Shown here one piece after another: positions 1,414 through 8,901 of a stretch of 23,492 nt of DNA; position 1 is the first letter of the stretch, and each line of letters begins with the position of its first letter. Origin of the DNA: Escherichia coli. GTDB taxonomy: Bacteria > Pseudomonadota > Gammaproteobacteria > Enterobacterales > Enterobacteriaceae. A model generated the notes under the pieces. The model did not search any database, was not told where the DNA came from, and saw nothing but the letters and a program-made list of their open reading frames with translations. The stretch lies in assembly GCF_003334765.1 (NCBI RefSeq), contig NZ_QOWT01000046.1; one strand, given 5' to 3'. Position numbers and translations under genes: made by a program.

Positions 1414-1471
1414 AAAAAGGGCGGCAGAGCAGTCACGGAGTAAAACTGATACCGCCAAACGTCACCAGAAA
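1414..1471 (-). ncRNA. dicF: DicF small regulatory RNA (53-nt core 1419-1471 plus U-tract)
   Basis: Reverse complement of 1419-1471 reads TTTCTGGTGACGTTTGGCGGTATCAGTTTTACTCCGTGACTGCTCTGCCGCCC, which matches DicF as I recall it, followed by TTTTT; located just upstream of dicB. Confidence 0.85.
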
Positions 1472-1802: not shown

Positions 1803-2081
1803 ATGGATAAAAAGCAAATTGAGGCCCTGCAATCTATTATTGAAAAACAAGATGAAGCTATCAGGATTCTTTCATATCGCACTGATATGATACTAAATAT
1901 GCTTTCTGCATTAACGGCTGCGCTTGGTGGTACAAAAACAAACGTATACCGCGAAGTTGTTATTCAACAGATAGATAAATTTGAAAAAACCATACCAGGT
2001 ATTAATGCTCATCTTGCAGAACAAGAGAAAGACCATGCTCTTATGGCAATTTCTTCAGTAGCTCTCCCGAAAGTTGAGTAG
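1803..2081 (+). CDS. Hypothetical small helical protein (92 aa), AT-rich, opposite in orientation to the surrounding operon
   Basis: ATG at 1803 preceded by AGGAGGG SD at about 5 nt; product MDKKQIEALQSIIEKQDEAIRILSYRTDMILNML...; visibly AT-rich; 3' end overlaps the convergent minus ORF 2041..2454 by 41 nt. Confidence 0.5.
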   Translation: MDKKQIEALQSIIEKQDEAIRILSYRTDMILNMLSALTAALGGTKTNVYREVVIQQIDKFEKTIPGINAHLAEQEKDHALMAISSVALPKVE

Positions 2082-2454
2082 TTTTAATTGTTGTTTTGAA
2101 ATAATCACTGCTTTCACATTTGAGTGATTTCATGGCAATCCAAATGCGGGCCTCTGTGCCTGCATTTGGTTCCAGTTGCTGTAGACGTTTTGCGTCTTCC
2201 AAAAGTAAGGCGATAATGTGTTTCAGCTTCTCATCATTTGCTTGATTCTTGTTTTCAGGCGAATTCTGTCCGCCGAATAGGCGCTTCTCTTCATACAGAC
2301 CTATAAAGGCACGACGCACGTTACCGGATATAGTATCGATGGTTTCTTTTTCTACGGTACTCAGGTCAAGAGTCGCCAGTTGAGAGCGAACCACATTCGA
2401 TGCCATTTCCTGGAATGGTACTGGTAAATCTTTAAATTCCATCGTCAACCTCAT
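2041..2454 (-). CDS. Hypothetical early-left-operon protein (137 aa)
   Basis: Complete minus ORF; its ATG (2452-2454) overlaps the TGA of the upstream ORF (TGATG coupling); a second in-frame ATG lies at 2440-2442. No recognisable motif. Confidence 0.5.
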   Translation of the reverse strand: MRLTMEFKDLPVPFQEMASNVVRSQLATLDLSTVEKETIDTISGNVRRAFIGLYEEKRLFGGQNSPENKNQANDEKLKHIIALLLEDAKRLQQLEPNAGTEARIWIAMKSLKCESSDYFKTTIKTTQLSGELLKKLP

Positions 2455-2687
2455 CAGTCAGTGTTTCTGGTTAACCAGCGACGCGCGCCAGCTTCAGTTT
2501 TAAACGTTTTGCTTCTGGTATACGTCATCGCGGTAAACGTGCCGTCCTGGTTGGGGAACACGCCACATACCAGAGATTCGTTGTTGCCAAGATTGAGCAT
2601 ATCCATGTTGACCTCATTTCCCCTTAACGCCGGGGTAGCGGAACAAAAACCTGCTGCATAGTTATTAAAGTTGAACCCTGCCGTCAT
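2454..2687 (-). CDS. Hypothetical small protein (77 aa, or 50 aa from the internal Met with GAGG SD); possibly YdfA/YdaF-like
   Basis: First minus ORF downstream of the repressor gene; internal start MDMLNLGNNESLVCGVFPNQDGTF... has a better SD than the first ATG. Family assignment is recollection only. Confidence 0.45.
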   Translation of the reverse strand: MTAGFNFNNYAAGFCSATPALRGNEVNMDMLNLGNNESLVCGVFPNQDGTFTAMTYTRSKTFKTEAGARRWLTRNTD

Positions 2688-2792
2688 GTTCTTACGCCTC
2701 GGGCTGGCTACTTAACCCCTGACCACTGCCTGGTAACTCGAAGTATTGCCCTGCATTCTGTGGGGCGGGGTGGGTTGGTATGAAAAGAAGGA

Positions 2793-2829
2793 TACCCATA
2801 GGTATTTAAAAAGTAAATACCTATGGGTA
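2793..2829. promoter_or_regulatory. Perfect 16-bp inverted repeat (TACCCATAGGTATTTA / TAAATACCTATGGGTA), candidate left operator and/or bidirectional terminator
   Basis: Arms at 2793-2808 and 2814-2829 are exact reverse complements; T-rich runs follow on both strands; lies about 40 bp past the repressor stop and upstream of the leftward operon. Confidence 0.5.
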
Positions 2830-2871
2830 AATTTTTGCGGTGTCTTAACTGGTGACTAGTTGTTTGGTGAG

Positions 2872-3291
2872 CTATGATGCGTTTTGTGCTTTCTTTTTAC
2901 GGATTTCTTCGTAGATCATATTGTAATACTGTTTTTTCTCTTCAAGAGTTTTTAATAATTTATCCGCTTCACTTTCTGGCAGTTCGTCTAAGAGATCTAA
3001 AAAAATACGTTGTCGTGGCGTTAGAACCCTTGTTTCATAACTGGAGGCTGTGTTCGTTGATGATGAAACGATACCATCCATCCATCCCCGGGGTAACCCA
3101 AAGGACTCTTCGATAATCTCCACCATATCATCAGCGATCCGTTTTTTTCCCTTTTTCCCCTCTGGGTACAACATTCTTGATACATAAGAAGGCTCGCGCC
3201 CGATCTTTCTGGCCACGTTAACCGCTTTACCATCGCATTTCTCATCACGAATTTTGATGAGTTGCTGTCGTCTAAATTCATATTTGTCCAT
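2872..3291 (-). CDS. Prophage repressor (cI/DicA-like HTH protein, 139 aa)
   Basis: Divergent from the Cro-like gene across an operator-bearing intergenic region; HTH-like segment KAVNVARKIGREPSYVSRML; C-terminal LPESEADKLLKTLEEKK resembles the DicA C-terminus as I recall it. Confidence 0.7.
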   Translation of the reverse strand: MDKYEFRRQQLIKIRDEKCDGKAVNVARKIGREPSYVSRMLYPEGKKGKKRIADDMVEIIEESFGLPRGWMDGIVSSSTNTASSYETRVLTPRQRIFLDLLDELPESEADKLLKTLEEKKQYYNMIYEEIRKKKAQNAS

Positions 3292-3391
3292 AGGTAAATA
3301 ATAGATGCGATTACCGCAAGGTAAACAACCTGTGGGTATTGACTTTTGTTTACCTGTGGGTATTCTTTGCTGTGTTTACTAAGGAGTAGCT
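3292..3391. promoter_or_regulatory. Divergent promoter/operator region (right-operator-like)
   Basis: Direct repeats CCTGTGGGTAT (x2); TTGACT, 16-nt spacer, TATTCT promoter-like elements facing the Cro-like gene; AAGGAG SD before the ATG at 3392. Confidence 0.55.
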
Positions 3392-3673
3392 ATGGAAGAA
3401 TTAAGAATATTTCTCAATTCTCTTTCGTCAGATGAACAGCGTATGTTTGCATGCGAGTGTGGTACCAGCATCGGTTATCTAAGAAAGGCATTGAGTAAAG
3501 GTCAAGTGTTAGGGGCATCGTTATGTGTCCTTATTGAGCGAGCCAGTAATGGTGAAGTTACACGTCAGCAACTAAGGCCTTTTGATTGGATGAATATTTG
3601 GCCCGAGCTGGAAGATACCAAAACGTTAACACAACCACTTTCTAGGAGCTTGATTCATGAAAATCAAGCATGA
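3392..3673 (+). CDS. Cro/YdaS-like HTH regulator (93 aa)
   Basis: Strong AAGGAG SD; first gene of the rightward operon; segment GYLRKALSKGQVLGASLCVLIERASNGEVTRQQLRP resembles the YdaS family by recollection. Confidence 0.7.
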   Translation: MEELRIFLNSLSSDEQRMFACECGTSIGYLRKALSKGQVLGASLCVLIERASNGEVTRQQLRPFDWMNIWPELEDTKTLTQPLSRSLIHENQA

Positions 3674-4082
3674 ACACATCCGCATGGCGATGAATGTCTG
3701 GGCGCATCCGGACGGCGAAAAAGTGCCGGCTGCGAAAATTACCAAAGCGTATTTCGAGCTGGGAATGACGTTCCCGGAACTGTATGACGACAGCCATCCG
3801 GAAGCCCTGGCCCGTAATACCCAGAAAATTTTCCGTTGGCTGGATAAAGACACCCCTGATGCTGTTGAAAAAATGCAGGCTCTGTTACCGGCGATCGAAA
3901 AGGCGATGCCGCCTTTGCTGGTGGCCCGTATGCGCAGCCACAGTTCTGAATATTACCGTGAGATCGTCGAACGGAGGGATCGGCTGGTGAAGGATGTCGA
4001 TGATTTTGTTGCGTCAGCGGTTGTTTTGTATGACCAGATGAATCGCGGCGGCCCGGCAGGGAATGCTGTGGTGATGCACTAA
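3657..4082 (+). CDS. YdaT-like protein (141 aa; family annotated as putative toxin or cII-like regulator)
   Basis: AGGAG SD; overlaps the Cro-like gene by 17 nt; size and position match Rac YdaT downstream of YdaS. Confidence 0.65.
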   Translation: MKIKHEHIRMAMNVWAHPDGEKVPAAKITKAYFELGMTFPELYDDSHPEALARNTQKIFRWLDKDTPDAVEKMQALLPAIEKAMPPLLVARMRSHSSEYYREIVERRDRLVKDVDDFVASAVVLYDQMNRGGPAGNAVVMH

Positions 4083-4089
4083 AAGCACG

Positions 4090-5067
4090 GTGTTCGGGGG
4101 TTTTATGAGCAGCAAGCTTCATGGTCTTGTCTGGGAAGGGTGCGCCTTCACCGGCATGATCTTATCCAGGGTGGCGGTTATGGCCCGTCTTGCAGACTAC
4201 AGCAATGACGAGGGCGTGTCATGGCCTGCCATTGAAACTATCCGGCGTCAGATCGGTGCAAGAAGTGAATCCACAGTGAAATCGGCTATTGCAGAACTGG
4301 CGAAAGAGGGCTGGCTGACGAAGGAAGAGCGTAAGGTCGGTGGGCGTAATGTAAGCAATATCTATCGGCTTAATGTGGAAAAACTCGAAGCAGCTGCGGC
4401 GGCGGCGCGTGAGTCATATAAACCGAAAAGAAAAATTAGCCCGGCAAAAAATGACCCGTTAACAGTTGACCCGTCAAATATTGCCCCCTCAACGGTTGAC
4501 CCGTCAAATTTTGATGGATCAACTGTTGATAAAAAACTGCCGATTAGGGGGCCGATGATTGACCCCGATCCGTCAGTATTAAAACCTGATCCGTCAGATA
4601 AAAGATCTTCTTGTCCGGACGCTTCGCAACCGGACCCGCAGACGGCTGAACAGGATTTTTTAACCCGACACCCTGACGCGGTTGTGTTCAGTGCGAAAAA
4701 ACGCCAGTGGGGAAGTCAGGAAGATTTGGTGTGCGCACAGTGGATCTGGGGACGAATCGTGAGTCTTTACGAGCAGGCGGCCAGCTATGATGGCGAGATC
4801 ACTAGACCGAAAGAACCCAACTGGACAGCATGGGCCAATGACGTTCGCACAATGCGGATGCTGGATGGCAGAACTCACAGACAAATTTGTGAAATGTTTG
4901 GGCGTCTCCAGCGGGATTCGTTCTGGGTAAAAAACATCATGAGTCCGGCAAAACTCCGGGAAAAATGGGATGAACTGGTTATCCGCCTGGGGCGTTCGCC
5001 TGCGCAGCGTTGCGTGAATCACATTTCTGAACCGGACACTGAAATTCCGCCGGGCTTCAGGGGGTAA
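4090..5067 (+). CDS. Replication initiator (O-like, N-terminal winged-helix; start GTG 4090 or ATG 4105)
   Basis: N-terminal LSRVAVMARLADYSNDEGVSWPAIETIRRQIGARSESTVKSAIAELAKEGWL is typical of phage replication initiators; a Pro/Asp-rich repetitive linker is encoded by iteron-like DNA repeats. Confidence 0.7.
   Translation: MFGGFMSSKLHGLVWEGCAFTGMILSRVAVMARLADYSNDEGVSWPAIETIRRQIGARSESTVKSAIAELAKEGWLTKEERKVGGRNVSNIYRLNVEKLEAAAAAARESYKPKRKISPAKNDPLTVDPSNIAPSTVDPSNFDGSTVDKKLPIRGPMIDPDPSVLKPDPSDKRSSCPDASQPDPQTAEQDFLTRHPDAVVFSAKKRQWGSQEDLVCAQWIWGRIVSLYEQAASYDGEITRPKEPNWTAWANDVRTMRMLDGRTHRQICEMFGRLQRDSFWVKNIMSPAKLREKWDELVIRLGRSPAQRCVNHISEPDTEIPPGFRG
4450..4600. repeat. Iteron-like repeats inside the replication gene (candidate ori)
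   Basis: GTTGACCCGTCAAAT at 4465-4479 and 4495-4509 (30-bp spacing); related TGACCCGTTAAC at about 4452; palindromic TCAACTGTTGA at about 4520; TGATCCGTCAG x2 at about 4566 and 4586. Confidence 0.55.
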
Positions 5068-5211
5068 GTGTTAATTTCTGGTCATGAGGTAATTTTCAGG
5101 AGGGCTTGTGGCAAAAGTTTTTACACAAGAAGAGCGGGAAAAAATTAAAGGGCAGGTTGTTGAACTCGTACGCCAGAGTGGGCGCGAGACGTTACGACAA
5201 CTGGAAACTAA

Positions 5212-6407
<1,196 letters not shown>

Positions 6408-6861
6408 CTAATACTGGGGCAACAAGATATCTGATGAGCGTTCTGGCCAGAGAGCTGGTTGCCAGTGGCGATGTATACAACTCTGGTTACGGGTTATTCC
6501 CGTCTGAACAGGCGCGTAAGGACTGGCAAAATGCCCGTAAAAAGCTCTCAAGGGCAAAGCTGAAGAAACCATCTGCGGTTGATCCGGACCTTATCTGGTC
6601 ATTACCTGACGGAGAAATACGTCGCTACGACAGGCGTCAGAACATAATCTGTCGCGAGTGCCGGAAGAGTGAAGTTATGCAGCGCATATTGTCGTTTTAT
6701 CAGGGTGATGTTCGGTATTTATTGAAGTGACGAGATTAAAGTGCATTAGTTCAGATGCAAATTGACATTTTGTGGCACAGGGTAGAGCTAGCGTGGTTGT
6801 CCGCTTTGTGCCAATAGCGGACATTGCTGGCTCATGGTATGTTAGTTTAAGGAGGCAGGTT

Positions 6862-7884
6862 ATGCCCTGTATTTCGCTGTGGTATAATAGTTGCGCAATT
6901 GATACAAGGGAGCGTTACATCGTGAAAATTGTTTTCGAGGTTAATGGAAAGAAAGTTCCACTAAAATCTTTAAAATACATAAGCAAAAAAGATCAACTCG
7001 AAGTAATGAAAAACTGGTTCTTTGAAAACTTTGAAGATCCGGCAAATGCTTGTCCGTATGAAAGTAGAGAAGGTGGCTATGCTTACATATATGGCGGGCC
7101 GTATGATGCGAGCGAAGAACTACAATCCATCTTCGGTCAATATGTTAAATCTGAGTATATTGAGGAATTAGTAGATGAATTACAAACACAATGTTTTGAC
7201 TGGTCTGGAAACTCAAATAATATAGATGATTGGTACGATGATGATATCTACGACGCTGTAACGTCTTCCGGTAATCCGTATTTAAAATTCATTGATAATA
7301 TCGATAAAATAAAAAAACTTGCAAAAGATAAAACTGAACAACAGCAAAAAAACCACTTGCTTAGTTTGCTCTACACGAATGTTATTACAGCTTTGGAAAC
7401 GCTTTATGTTGAGCTATTCATTAATTCTATAGAGAAAGATGATGTCTACATAGCCAATTGTATAGAAAAAGGTAAGACTGAATTTAAAGTAAGCAAAGAT
7501 ATTGCTGCGTTGCCTTTCAAGGGTGAACCCATCGAGAAAATTAGGGGAGAGCTAATCAGGTCAATCAAGGAACACTTGATCAGTGCAAGCTGGCATAGCA
7601 CTAAAAAGGTAATCGACCGCTATGAAGCTACATTCGATATAAAAGTACAAAAAGACTGTCCGATAGAAGCTATTGAATTGGCAACCCTCAATCGAAATCA
7701 CTTAGTGCATCGTGGTGGAAAGGATAAAGAAGGGAACCTCGTAGTGATTACAGACCAGGATCTTGAAACGCTGATTGAAAATGCATCGAACCTGGCAATT
7801 ATGCTCTACAACAGTTTAAATGTAGCAACGAATAAAACCACCATTTTGCAACCAGATGACAAACCGTTCATTCATGAATTTTAA
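6862..7884 (+). CDS. Hypothetical cargo protein with a C-terminal HEPN-like R-x4-H motif (start ATG 6862, or GTG 6922)
   Basis: Visibly AT-rich; GGAGG SD 6 nt before ATG 6862; an extended -10 TGGTATAAT at 6879-6887 suggests the GTG 6922 start instead; RNHLVH at nt 7693-7710 within a helical C-terminal region. Confidence 0.6.
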   Translation: MPCISLWYNSCAIDTRERYIVKIVFEVNGKKVPLKSLKYISKKDQLEVMKNWFFENFEDPANACPYESREGGYAYIYGGPYDASEELQSIFGQYVKSEYIEELVDELQTQCFDWSGNSNNIDDWYDDDIYDAVTSSGNPYLKFIDNIDKIKKLAKDKTEQQQKNHLLSLLYTNVITALETLYVELFINSIEKDDVYIANCIEKGKTEFKVSKDIAALPFKGEPIEKIRGELIRSIKEHLISASWHSTKKVIDRYEATFDIKVQKDCPIEAIELATLNRNHLVHRGGKDKEGNLVVITDQDLETLIENASNLAIMLYNSLNVATNKTTILQPDDKPFIHEF

Positions 7885-7899
7885 TAGCGCAGGTCATAC

Positions 7900-8901
7900 A
7901 TGGATATTCGCACACGAAAGACAAAATTTTTAGAGTCGTTAGATTCAACTGAAGTGATACGCAAAGCAGTAAGTCTCGCTATAGATTGCATTATTGATAA
8001 TCATAATAGTAATGAAGATACCCCCTTAGTTATTACCAGCTATGATGATCTCTGTAGAATCCAGGTGCTAAATTATGTACAGGAGTTTTGCGAAGCTGCA
8101 TTCCCTGATATGGATGAATATTACTTTAGTCCTAACATACTTCGCATCAACGGCAAGACTAGTGAAGAAGCTTGTATTAACTTAATTAAACTCTTAAGAA
8201 GTACAAAAGGCATGCTATTCTGGTCCGATGCCCCATCGTGGTTCGCTAGCCTCCCCGACGGATTATTCCATGTTGTTAACATTGATCAAAAAATCGTTAC
8301 TCGCGGCCTTAATAAGAAAAACTCTAAGCCGACAATAATCAATAAAGATTACAGTGTAGATACACTACTATCAGAGCTATTTTTGAATGGCGCACACATG
8401 GAGCAACCCAACGTACACAACGTTTCTGAGGGAAACATGAAGTTCTATGATGAATGCCATGCTGGATTAATCAGACCAATACCCGCTCCAATAGGCGCGT
8501 CATACGATGAAGAGATCACAATTAATTCTCCAGATTGGCAAAAGCTCGCGTGTGTAGCTTTACGCCGCTATCAGTCGAAGGAATGTCATGACGGAATGCA
8601 ATGGGATACAACCGATCATGGTTGGACTGATGTAATCGCGTATCCATTCGTCGAAGAAATACAATCAATGGATAATAGTGGTTATCGACAATGTTTAGTT
8701 GGGCTGGTCACAATAAACAATTCAAATGCAAATTCTCCGTACCTATCTACCGTTTGGATACATCTATTTTATCGCAGGAGAGGGTTATTAAGTAAGTTAT
8801 GGCCAAAATTACAAGAGTTATATGGAAGTAACTTCGAAATTGAGCGACCTAATGAAAATATGAAAGCATTTCTGAAAAGTGCGAAACACGCAGATTACTA
8901 A
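7900..8901 (+). CDS. Hypothetical cargo protein (333 aa), partner of the preceding gene
   Basis: Same strand, 15-bp gap, same AT-rich composition; C-terminal LSTVWIHLFYRRRGLLSKLWPKL loosely resembles a GNAT-type beta-strand/R-x-x-G motif (weak). Confidence 0.6.
   Translation: MDIRTRKTKFLESLDSTEVIRKAVSLAIDCIIDNHNSNEDTPLVITSYDDLCRIQVLNYVQEFCEAAFPDMDEYYFSPNILRINGKTSEEACINLIKLLRSTKGMLFWSDAPSWFASLPDGLFHVVNIDQKIVTRGLNKKNSKPTIINKDYSVDTLLSELFLNGAHMEQPNVHNVSEGNMKFYDECHAGLIRPIPAPIGASYDEEITINSPDWQKLACVALRRYQSKECHDGMQWDTTDHGWTDVIAYPFVEEIQSMDNSGYRQCLVGLVTINNSNANSPYLSTVWIHLFYRRRGLLSKLWPKLQELYGSNFEIERPNENMKAFLKSAKHADY

Follow-up and report, generated by a model that had tools for sequence, protein, structure and literature searches.

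The closest described relatives of the locus analysed here are the immunity regions of two Escherichia coli prophages, CP-933P (Sp12) and Rac, and, by analogy, that of phage lambda. In CP-933P, overexpression of YdaT had no toxic effect; the protein did not act on PR, PRM, or PL, but turned on an otherwise silent leftward promoter, PRE933P (Jurenas 2021, PMC8630535). Prolonged overexpression of YdaS or of the repressor PaaR2 slowed growth in the same study, and its authors concluded that YdaS and YdaT are analogues of Cro and CII, not a toxin–antitoxin pair. The crystal structure revealed a YdaT tetramer with a POU-like HTH domain and a four-helix tetramerisation bundle, which holds two duplexes of the operator OM with sub-micromolar affinity (Prolic-Kalinsek 2023, PMC9986795). 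The high-affinity operator was published as TTGATT-N6-AATCAA, and the toxin–antitoxin label was traced to a bioinformatic prediction that found no experimental confirmation (PMC9986795).

The Rac prophage of E. coli K-12 has the gene order RacR, YdaS, YdaT, and its YdaT is a tetramer that acts via a YdaT box to activate a reverse promoter inside ydaS, which increases racR expression (Wons 2025, PMC11879457; the mutated box used in that work was CCCGGGTTCATGGCGCGC). Rac YdaT also binds the racR–ydaS intergenic region and the promoter of the host gene rcsA; the latter is the route of its toxicity, with filamentation and death upon overexpression (PMC11879457). The YdaT proteins of CP-933P and Rac cross-activate each other's box, and the Rac YdaT-box promoter responded to CP-933P YdaT to the same extent; the rcsA promoter, however, was not activated by CP-933P YdaT (PMC11879457). 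In lambda, cro, cII, and O follow each other in a comparable order, the activator is likewise a tetrameric HTH protein with a site at the cro/cII border, and the leftward promoter PRE feeds repressor synthesis and at the same time antisense transcription of cro. The POU-like fold of YdaT, with 222 symmetry, recognizes an inverted repeat, whereas lambda CII recognizes a direct repeat.

We analyzed a stretch of 23,492 nucleotides from E. coli (contig NZ_QOWT01000046.1; hereafter the window), which is a lambdoid prophage. A first-pass annotation had proposed a Cro-like HTH protein followed by an overlapping YdaT-like gene at the head of a rightward early operon, and had left open whether this pair serves regulation or toxicity. 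Both reading frames were recovered at exactly the proposed positions, with an overlap of 17 nt (3657-3673) and with homologues in PDB, Pfam, and PHROG. Their position at the head of the operon was confirmed as well, by a PR-like promoter in front of ydaS, a divergent repressor promoter, and an O-like gene on the 3' side. The features of the region are as follows.

2789-2832, minus strand: putative PL with the operators OL1 TACCCATAGGTA (2793-2804) and OL2 TACCTATGGGTA (2818-2829), both TACC-N4-GGTA cores, 3' of the repressor gene
2872-3291, minus strand: repressor gene, 139 aa, divergent; phrog_5736 'transcriptional regulator', E = 6e-70
3298-3325, minus strand: PRM-like promoter, TTTACC-16-TATTAT, 9/12 in the promoter scan, spacing read from the sequence
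3312-3323: OR-type operator TACCGCAAGGTA
3327-3338: OR-type operator AACCTGTGGGTA, 15 bp centre-to-centre from the 3312 copy
3339-3366, plus strand: PR-like promoter, TTGACT-16-TATTCT, 9/12 in the promoter scan, 26 nt upstream of the ydaS ATG
3351-3362: OR-type operator TACCTGTGGGTA, 24 bp centre-to-centre from the 3327 copy
3392-3673, plus strand: ydaS-like gene, 93 aa, ATG start, AAGGAG Shine-Dalgarno sequence 6 nt upstream
3645-3649: mosaic junction, at which the CP-933P-type module begins on its left side, within the Shine-Dalgarno region of ydaT and 5 nt before the YdaT box (blastn against the CP-933P-type locus L002)
3650-3667: YdaT box (OM), TTGATTCATGAAAATCAA, the sole exact TTGATT-N6-AATCAA match in the window, with the ydaT ATG in its spacer
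3657-4082, plus strand: ydaT, 141 aa, ATG start, AGGAG Shine-Dalgarno sequence 9 nt upstream
3686-3711: counterpart of the weak CP-933P site OL, in the ydaT coding sequence; equals the published oligonucleotide CCGGATGCGCCCAGACATTCATCGCC in reverse complement (PMC9986795 Table S5)
4090-5067, plus strand: O-like replication initiator, next gene of the PR operon; phrog_391, E = 4.5e-115, RefSeq start at 4106

The identity of YdaT is decisive for its role. Residues 2-141 showed 100% identity to PDB entry 8bt1 (PDB sequence search, E = 7e-93), which is the YdaT crystallised from prophage CP-933P of E. coli O157:H7; a second PDB match was 3c4r (E = 7e-80). The RefSeq accession WP_000693943.1 is common to the window protein and to the ydaT product encoded beside paaR2-paaA2-parE2 in the CP-933P-type region of an O157:H7 genome. 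Profile searches, which could have assigned the proteins to unrelated families, instead placed YdaT in Pfam PF06254 (E = 3.9e-10) and in phrog_163, 'CII-like transcriptional activator' (E = 3e-47); the Phage_CII family was not among its Pfam matches. As the sequence is that of the crystallised protein, the window YdaT has the same domain layout, i.e., a POU-like HTH domain and, C-terminal to it, a tetramerisation helix, and retains the DNA-contact residues Arg53, Arg60-Trp61, and Glu21 (recognition helix residues according to PMC9986795) together with the hydrophobic core of the C-terminal helix. The gene also has the position typical of the family, between a cro-like gene and the replication genes and opposite the repressor gene. 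We therefore consider YdaT a member of the YdaT family PF06254 and the predicted functional analogue of CII. Since the window protein is the one published as a non-toxic activator without effect on rcsA (PMC8630535, PMC11879457), the question that had been left open, regulation or toxicity, is essentially closed in favor of regulation.

The upstream partner is more divergent. Over 78 aa, the YdaS-like protein was 36% identical to YdaS of CP-933P (E = 5e-17), and it matched PDB entries 8c7k and 8co2, 'antirepressor protein Cro' (E = 1e-10), the former of which is CP-933P YdaS by direct sequence comparison. It was further assigned to phrog_35, 'transcriptional repressor' (E = 5e-23), and gave a partial match to Pfam PF15943 (model positions 30-62 of 65, E = 1.1e-5); the Pfam Cro family was absent from its Pfam matches. 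Resemblance to Rac YdaS was weak and confined to 28 residues. Given these two comparisons, the window YdaS represents a different allele of the same Cro-like family. Its gene occupies the place known for YdaS/Cro-like proteins (PF15943, COG4197), as the first gene of the PR operon and divergent from the repressor gene, with repeated operators in between, and we consider its product a putative Cro analogue. Among 5426 complete E. coli genomes, 824 (about 15%) carry this ydaS allele. The pair is thus predicted to work like Cro and CII while standing outside the lambda Cro and Phage_CII families, and sequence homology to lambda Cro and CII was indeed lacking. Within 3392-4122, four antisense or alternative-frame ORFs of 51-127 aa gave no PHROG match, and an Rfam search of 2600-4300 (E ≤ 1) returned nothing.

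The divergently encoded 139-aa protein is named 'hypothetical protein' in RefSeq. It showed 23% identity to PaaR2 (E = 8e-9), and its C-terminus resembled DicA (E = 1.9e-5); an S24/LexA-like peptidase domain was absent, neither Pfam nor PDB returned a match, and direct comparison with RacR revealed no similarity. By homology, it is a distant relative of PaaR2 and the presumed functional analogue of CI. A sigma-70 promoter scan over 2600-4200, with a threshold of 9/12 consensus positions, returned the PR- and PRM-like promoters only, both of which are located in the 100-bp intergenic region. The former is predicted to drive ydaS-ydaT and the O-like gene. Transcription from PRM is predicted to begin right at the A of the repressor ATG (3291), which would make the repressor mRNA leaderless; PaaR2 and lambda cI provide precedents (PMC8630535). 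The three OR operators cover the PRM -35 element, the upstream edge of the PR -35 element, and the PR spacer plus -10 element. Their 12-bp palindromic core, TACC-N4-GGTA, was found in four exact copies in the window (0.14 expected by chance) and in one further copy with one mismatch, all five of them inside the immunity region. Together, OL1 and OL2 make up an inverted repeat (16 bp, perfect, 5-nt loop), which scored as a terminator-like hairpin on both strands. On the minus strand, the sequence TTTACT-17-TATCCT parallels PR, with a 24-nt arm matching the PR spacer and -10 element by 79%. Read by eye and with 8/12 consensus positions, 2789-2832 is a candidate PL/OL, and the repeat at 2793-2829 may act as OL/PL and as terminator of the repressor transcript together.

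Comparison with CP-933P by blastn revealed a mosaic. The window matched the CP-933P-type locus L002 at 1-1788, 2617-2781, and 3645-5065; the last segment is 99% identical and includes the O-like gene. The unmatched segment 2782-3644 carries PL/OL, the repressor gene, OR, and nearly all of ydaS, and has a lower GC content (42-44% vs. 50-52%). Both loci thus share YdaT, the OM operator, the weak OL site, the gene order (repressor, cro-like gene, ydaT, O), and a leaderless repressor mRNA, which is predicted for the window. However, they differ in the immunity cassette: the operators of CP-933P are GTTTAGTAA-type repeats instead of TACC-N4-GGTA, the paaA2-parE2 pair behind its repressor gene is missing from the window, and its ydaS and ydaT overlap by ATGA, whereas the 17-nt overlap in the window is read in another frame. 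The sequence left of the box, which in CP-933P holds the OR site of YdaT and PRE933P, is replaced in the window, and the OR site is not conserved. Because the junction lies at 3645, the last eight codons of ydaS (…LIHENQA) and its stop codon (3645-3673) are encoded by the ydaT module; the rest of the gene belongs to the immunity cassette. Rac has the gene order of the window and a YdaT box across the ydaT ATG that is 1 nt off (ATGATT vs. TTGATT), but its YdaT is only 31% identical and its repressor RacR is unrelated.

The box marks the joint between these parts. TTGATTCATGAAAATCAA is the same sequence as the footprinted OM of CP-933P (PMC9986795). In an alignment of 14 junctions, comprising the window and 13 fetched loci (L001-L013), GATTCATGAAAATCAA was unchanged in all 14, variation being confined to the outer 2-3 nt of the left half-site (TT, AT, or GG). 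Another candidate YdaT site at 2091-2108 had two mismatches to the box pattern, which is chance level, and was rejected. The N-terminus of YdaT, MKIKHEHI, is kept even in the Rac protein, probably because the DNA that encodes it is the operator. In loci L001-L013, the C-terminal tails of several unrelated Cro-like proteins are read from the same DNA as the YdaT N-terminus (3645-3680). The same DNA hence specifies a Cro-like tail, MKIKHEHI, and the binding site, so that the YdaT box constrains two overlapping frames in addition to a protein–DNA contact.

The 14 loci comprised seven repressor/Cro cassettes joined to ydaT: the PaaR2 type, that of the window, two LexA types, a 139-aa HTH type, a type with RacR and a 107-aa HTH protein, and Rac itself. 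Alleles were also exchanged between partners, with the window YdaS protein paired with three other YdaT alleles and the window YdaT paired with other cassettes, LexA-type and RacR-type among them. These combinations suggest that ydaT and its box form a conserved module that recombination has joined to at least seven cassettes, with the joint at the left edge of the box. DNA similar to ydaT was present in 3054 of the 5426 complete E. coli genomes, with up to seven copies per genome, and the YdaT box in more than half of them, with up to six per genome. Only 19 of 50,697 phage records encode a YdaT homologue, mostly annotated as 'activator protein cII', and the window cassette occurred in none of these 19.

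Taken together, we consider it very likely that the locus represents the right half of an immunity switch in a lambdoid prophage and not a toxin–antitoxin pair. In the silent prophage, the 139-aa repressor would be made from the leaderless PRM transcript and would occupy the TACC-N4-GGTA sites at OR and OL, which keeps PR and PL off. Once PR fires, a single transcript would provide YdaS, YdaT, and the O-like replication protein. As its homology to the CP-933P protein suggests, the Cro-like YdaS would bind the same OR and OL operators and lower PRM first and PR next. The CII-like YdaT would bind as a tetramer to TTGATTCATGAAAATCAA across its own start codon and activate a weak leftward promoter, whose transcript would run antisense to ydaS and into the repressor gene and switch the prophage back to repression. 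Binding and activation by YdaT were demonstrated for the identical protein in CP-933P (PMC8630535, PMC9986795).

The CII-like arm is well supported as far as YdaT and its box are concerned, its target in the window cassette being putative. The 9/12 scan of 2600-4200 gave no leftward candidate for the YdaT-dependent promoter. A relaxed scan (8/12) gave two candidates on the minus strand of ydaS, with predicted starts near 3586 and 3397. When the scan was applied to seven loci including the window, five had scattered candidates at distances of 72-97 bp from the box, which are indistinguishable from chance, and among the six other cassettes it did not recover the published Rac promoter PracR4. 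The PRE933P fragment, as defined by the published primers, corresponds to L002 3949-4068 and lies mostly left of the box; being mostly in the sequence that is replaced in the window, the CP-933P promoter is not simply transferable.

The genomic context is that of a prophage found elsewhere in the species. Positions 2000-5200 aligned at 99.8% identity with a prophage of E. coli O127:H6 E2348/69; RefSeq has both CDS there, under the names 'transcriptional regulator' and 'toxin YdaT family protein'. To the left of the switch are an exonuclease gene, DUF1482, dicB, and DicF, and to the right the O-like replication gene, a RusA-like resolvase, a Q antiterminator, a DNA methyltransferase, and three tRNAs. 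As in the Qin prophage, the dicB-like gene of the leftward operon is preceded by the DicF antisense sRNA (1419-1470, minus strand; Rfam RF00039, 76.7 bits). An IS5 copy (5212-6407, transposase ORF 5280-6260) interrupts the DUF977 gene, splitting it into an N-terminal fragment (5108-5239) and a remainder starting at 6408; overlapping alignment ends point to a target duplication of 4 bp. IS5 was absent from this site in E2348/69 and in all complete E. coli genomes of the collection (best cover 73%). Comparison of 5067-5108 with L002 5457-6993 further showed that the window lacks a ydaV-like ATP-binding (DnaC-like) gene and a DUF1627 gene between the O-like gene and DUF977; both are present in many other E. 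coli and missing in E2348/69, too. With IS5 in the DUF977 gene and no ydaV-like helicase loader, hence a seemingly incomplete replication module, the prophage is probably defective, in which case the circuit may matter only for keeping the element silent.

Farther to the right, an AT-rich insert (6772-8901, 34-40% GC) in the early-right region carries two genes. The 370-aa product belongs to phrog_17908 and gave a weak match to Pfam HEPN/RES N-terminal domain 1 (E = 2.6e-4), the 333-aa product belongs to phrog_16994 with an insignificant GNAT match (E = 0.16), and PADLOC matched neither; the two could be cargo with a so far uncharacterised role in conflict or defence. Also in the early-right region, a match to the sok antitoxin RNA at 9350-9524 (RF01794, 112.6 bits) suggests a hok/sok type I toxin–antitoxin locus, which would be a genuine system, unlike ydaS/ydaT. 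Between Q and the gene of a 617-aa phrog_143 protein, a cluster at 14049-15051 comprises tRNA genes Met(CAT), Arg(TCG), and Arg(TCT), followed by two sRNA STnc100 copies (14374-14564 and 14842-15051), and there are no ORFs of ≥ 90 aa between the tRNAs and 15274. Stx phages have a similar arrangement, with tRNA genes placed after Q. The right end of the window (23273-23471) matches the full length of Rfam IS009 (RF02111, 225 bits).

Three other explanations were weighed against the switch. That YdaS and YdaT form a type II toxin–antitoxin pair, or a set of two toxins restrained by the repressor, with growth arrest or addiction as their role, is suggested by their names in Pfam and RefSeq ('YdaT_toxin', 'YdaS_toxin', 'toxin YdaT family protein'), by their small, overlapping genes, and by the reported toxicity of Rac ydaS/ydaT upon derepression or overexpression (PMC5700377, PMC5700373, PMC11879457). 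However, the Pfam names are historical labels for HTH regulators, and neither NCBIfam nor PADLOC, as curated sources of toxin and antitoxin families, holds a model that matches either protein. Published tests of the identical YdaT were negative for toxicity (PMC8630535) and for activation of rcsA (PMC11879457), its structure is that of an HTH transcription factor with a defined operator, the toxin–antitoxin prediction had failed earlier tests (PMC9986795), and the genes stand in cro-cII-O synteny. We rejected this reading as highly improbable. Slightly less probable still is that YdaT acts mainly on host genes, so that derepression would remodel host physiology instead of operating a switch. 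Rac YdaT does bind the rcsA promoter and drive filamentation and death (PMC11879457), and YdaT tetramers have a second, free DNA-binding face (PMC9986795); the identical CP-933P protein, however, neither activates rcsA (PMC11879457) nor is toxic (PMC8630535), and the window lacks a second exact box.

The most serious objection concerns the mosaic itself and was judged unlikely, although clearly less so than the two preceding ones. It holds that the genes are intact and the CII-like arm is non-functional: with the CP-933P sequence to the left of the box lost in the immunity swap, YdaT would have no promoter to activate and would bind the box idly or auto-repress its own translation or transcription, which would make the pair a relic of a defective prophage. 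Homology to CP-933P indeed starts only at 3645, with the OR site and everything left of the box replaced, no leftward promoter in ydaS exceeds 8/12, the box covers the ydaT ATG, and the prophage carries IS5 and lacks the helicase loader. On the other hand, the invariant box is joined to seven cassettes, and the arrangement of cassette and ydaT was intact in all five loci inspected (window included), which, together with an allele present in 824 genomes, argues for a maintained function. In Rac, the activated promoter sits about 190 bp away, within the Rac allele of ydaS; each cassette can thus bring a promoter of its own, and a weak appearance is expected of CII-dependent promoters. We therefore retain the complete immunity switch as the preferred reading.

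The locus is hence a regulator pair of a kind already known. Structure and function of YdaT are published, and only the immunity cassette fused to it, with its Pfam-less repressor, TACC-N4-GGTA operators, and ydaS allele, is uncharacterised in the YdaS/YdaT literature. Beyond correcting the annotation the significance is small: as the window protein is a characterised CII-like activator, the label 'toxin YdaT family protein' is misleading. Of modest comparative value is the YdaT box as the sharp boundary at which recombination joins a conserved ydaT module to many interchangeable repressor/Cro cassettes, and the window cassette would offer an easy system for studying the wiring of a common activator to differing immunity regions. 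More tentatively, ydaT and its box may be a portable, cross-reactive module for the return to repression, through which YdaT from a single derepressed prophage could induce repressor production in heteroimmune prophages of the same cell, that of the window included. If this were true, otherwise independent prophage switches would be coupled, and each cassette would need its own evolved, box-responsive leftward promoter.
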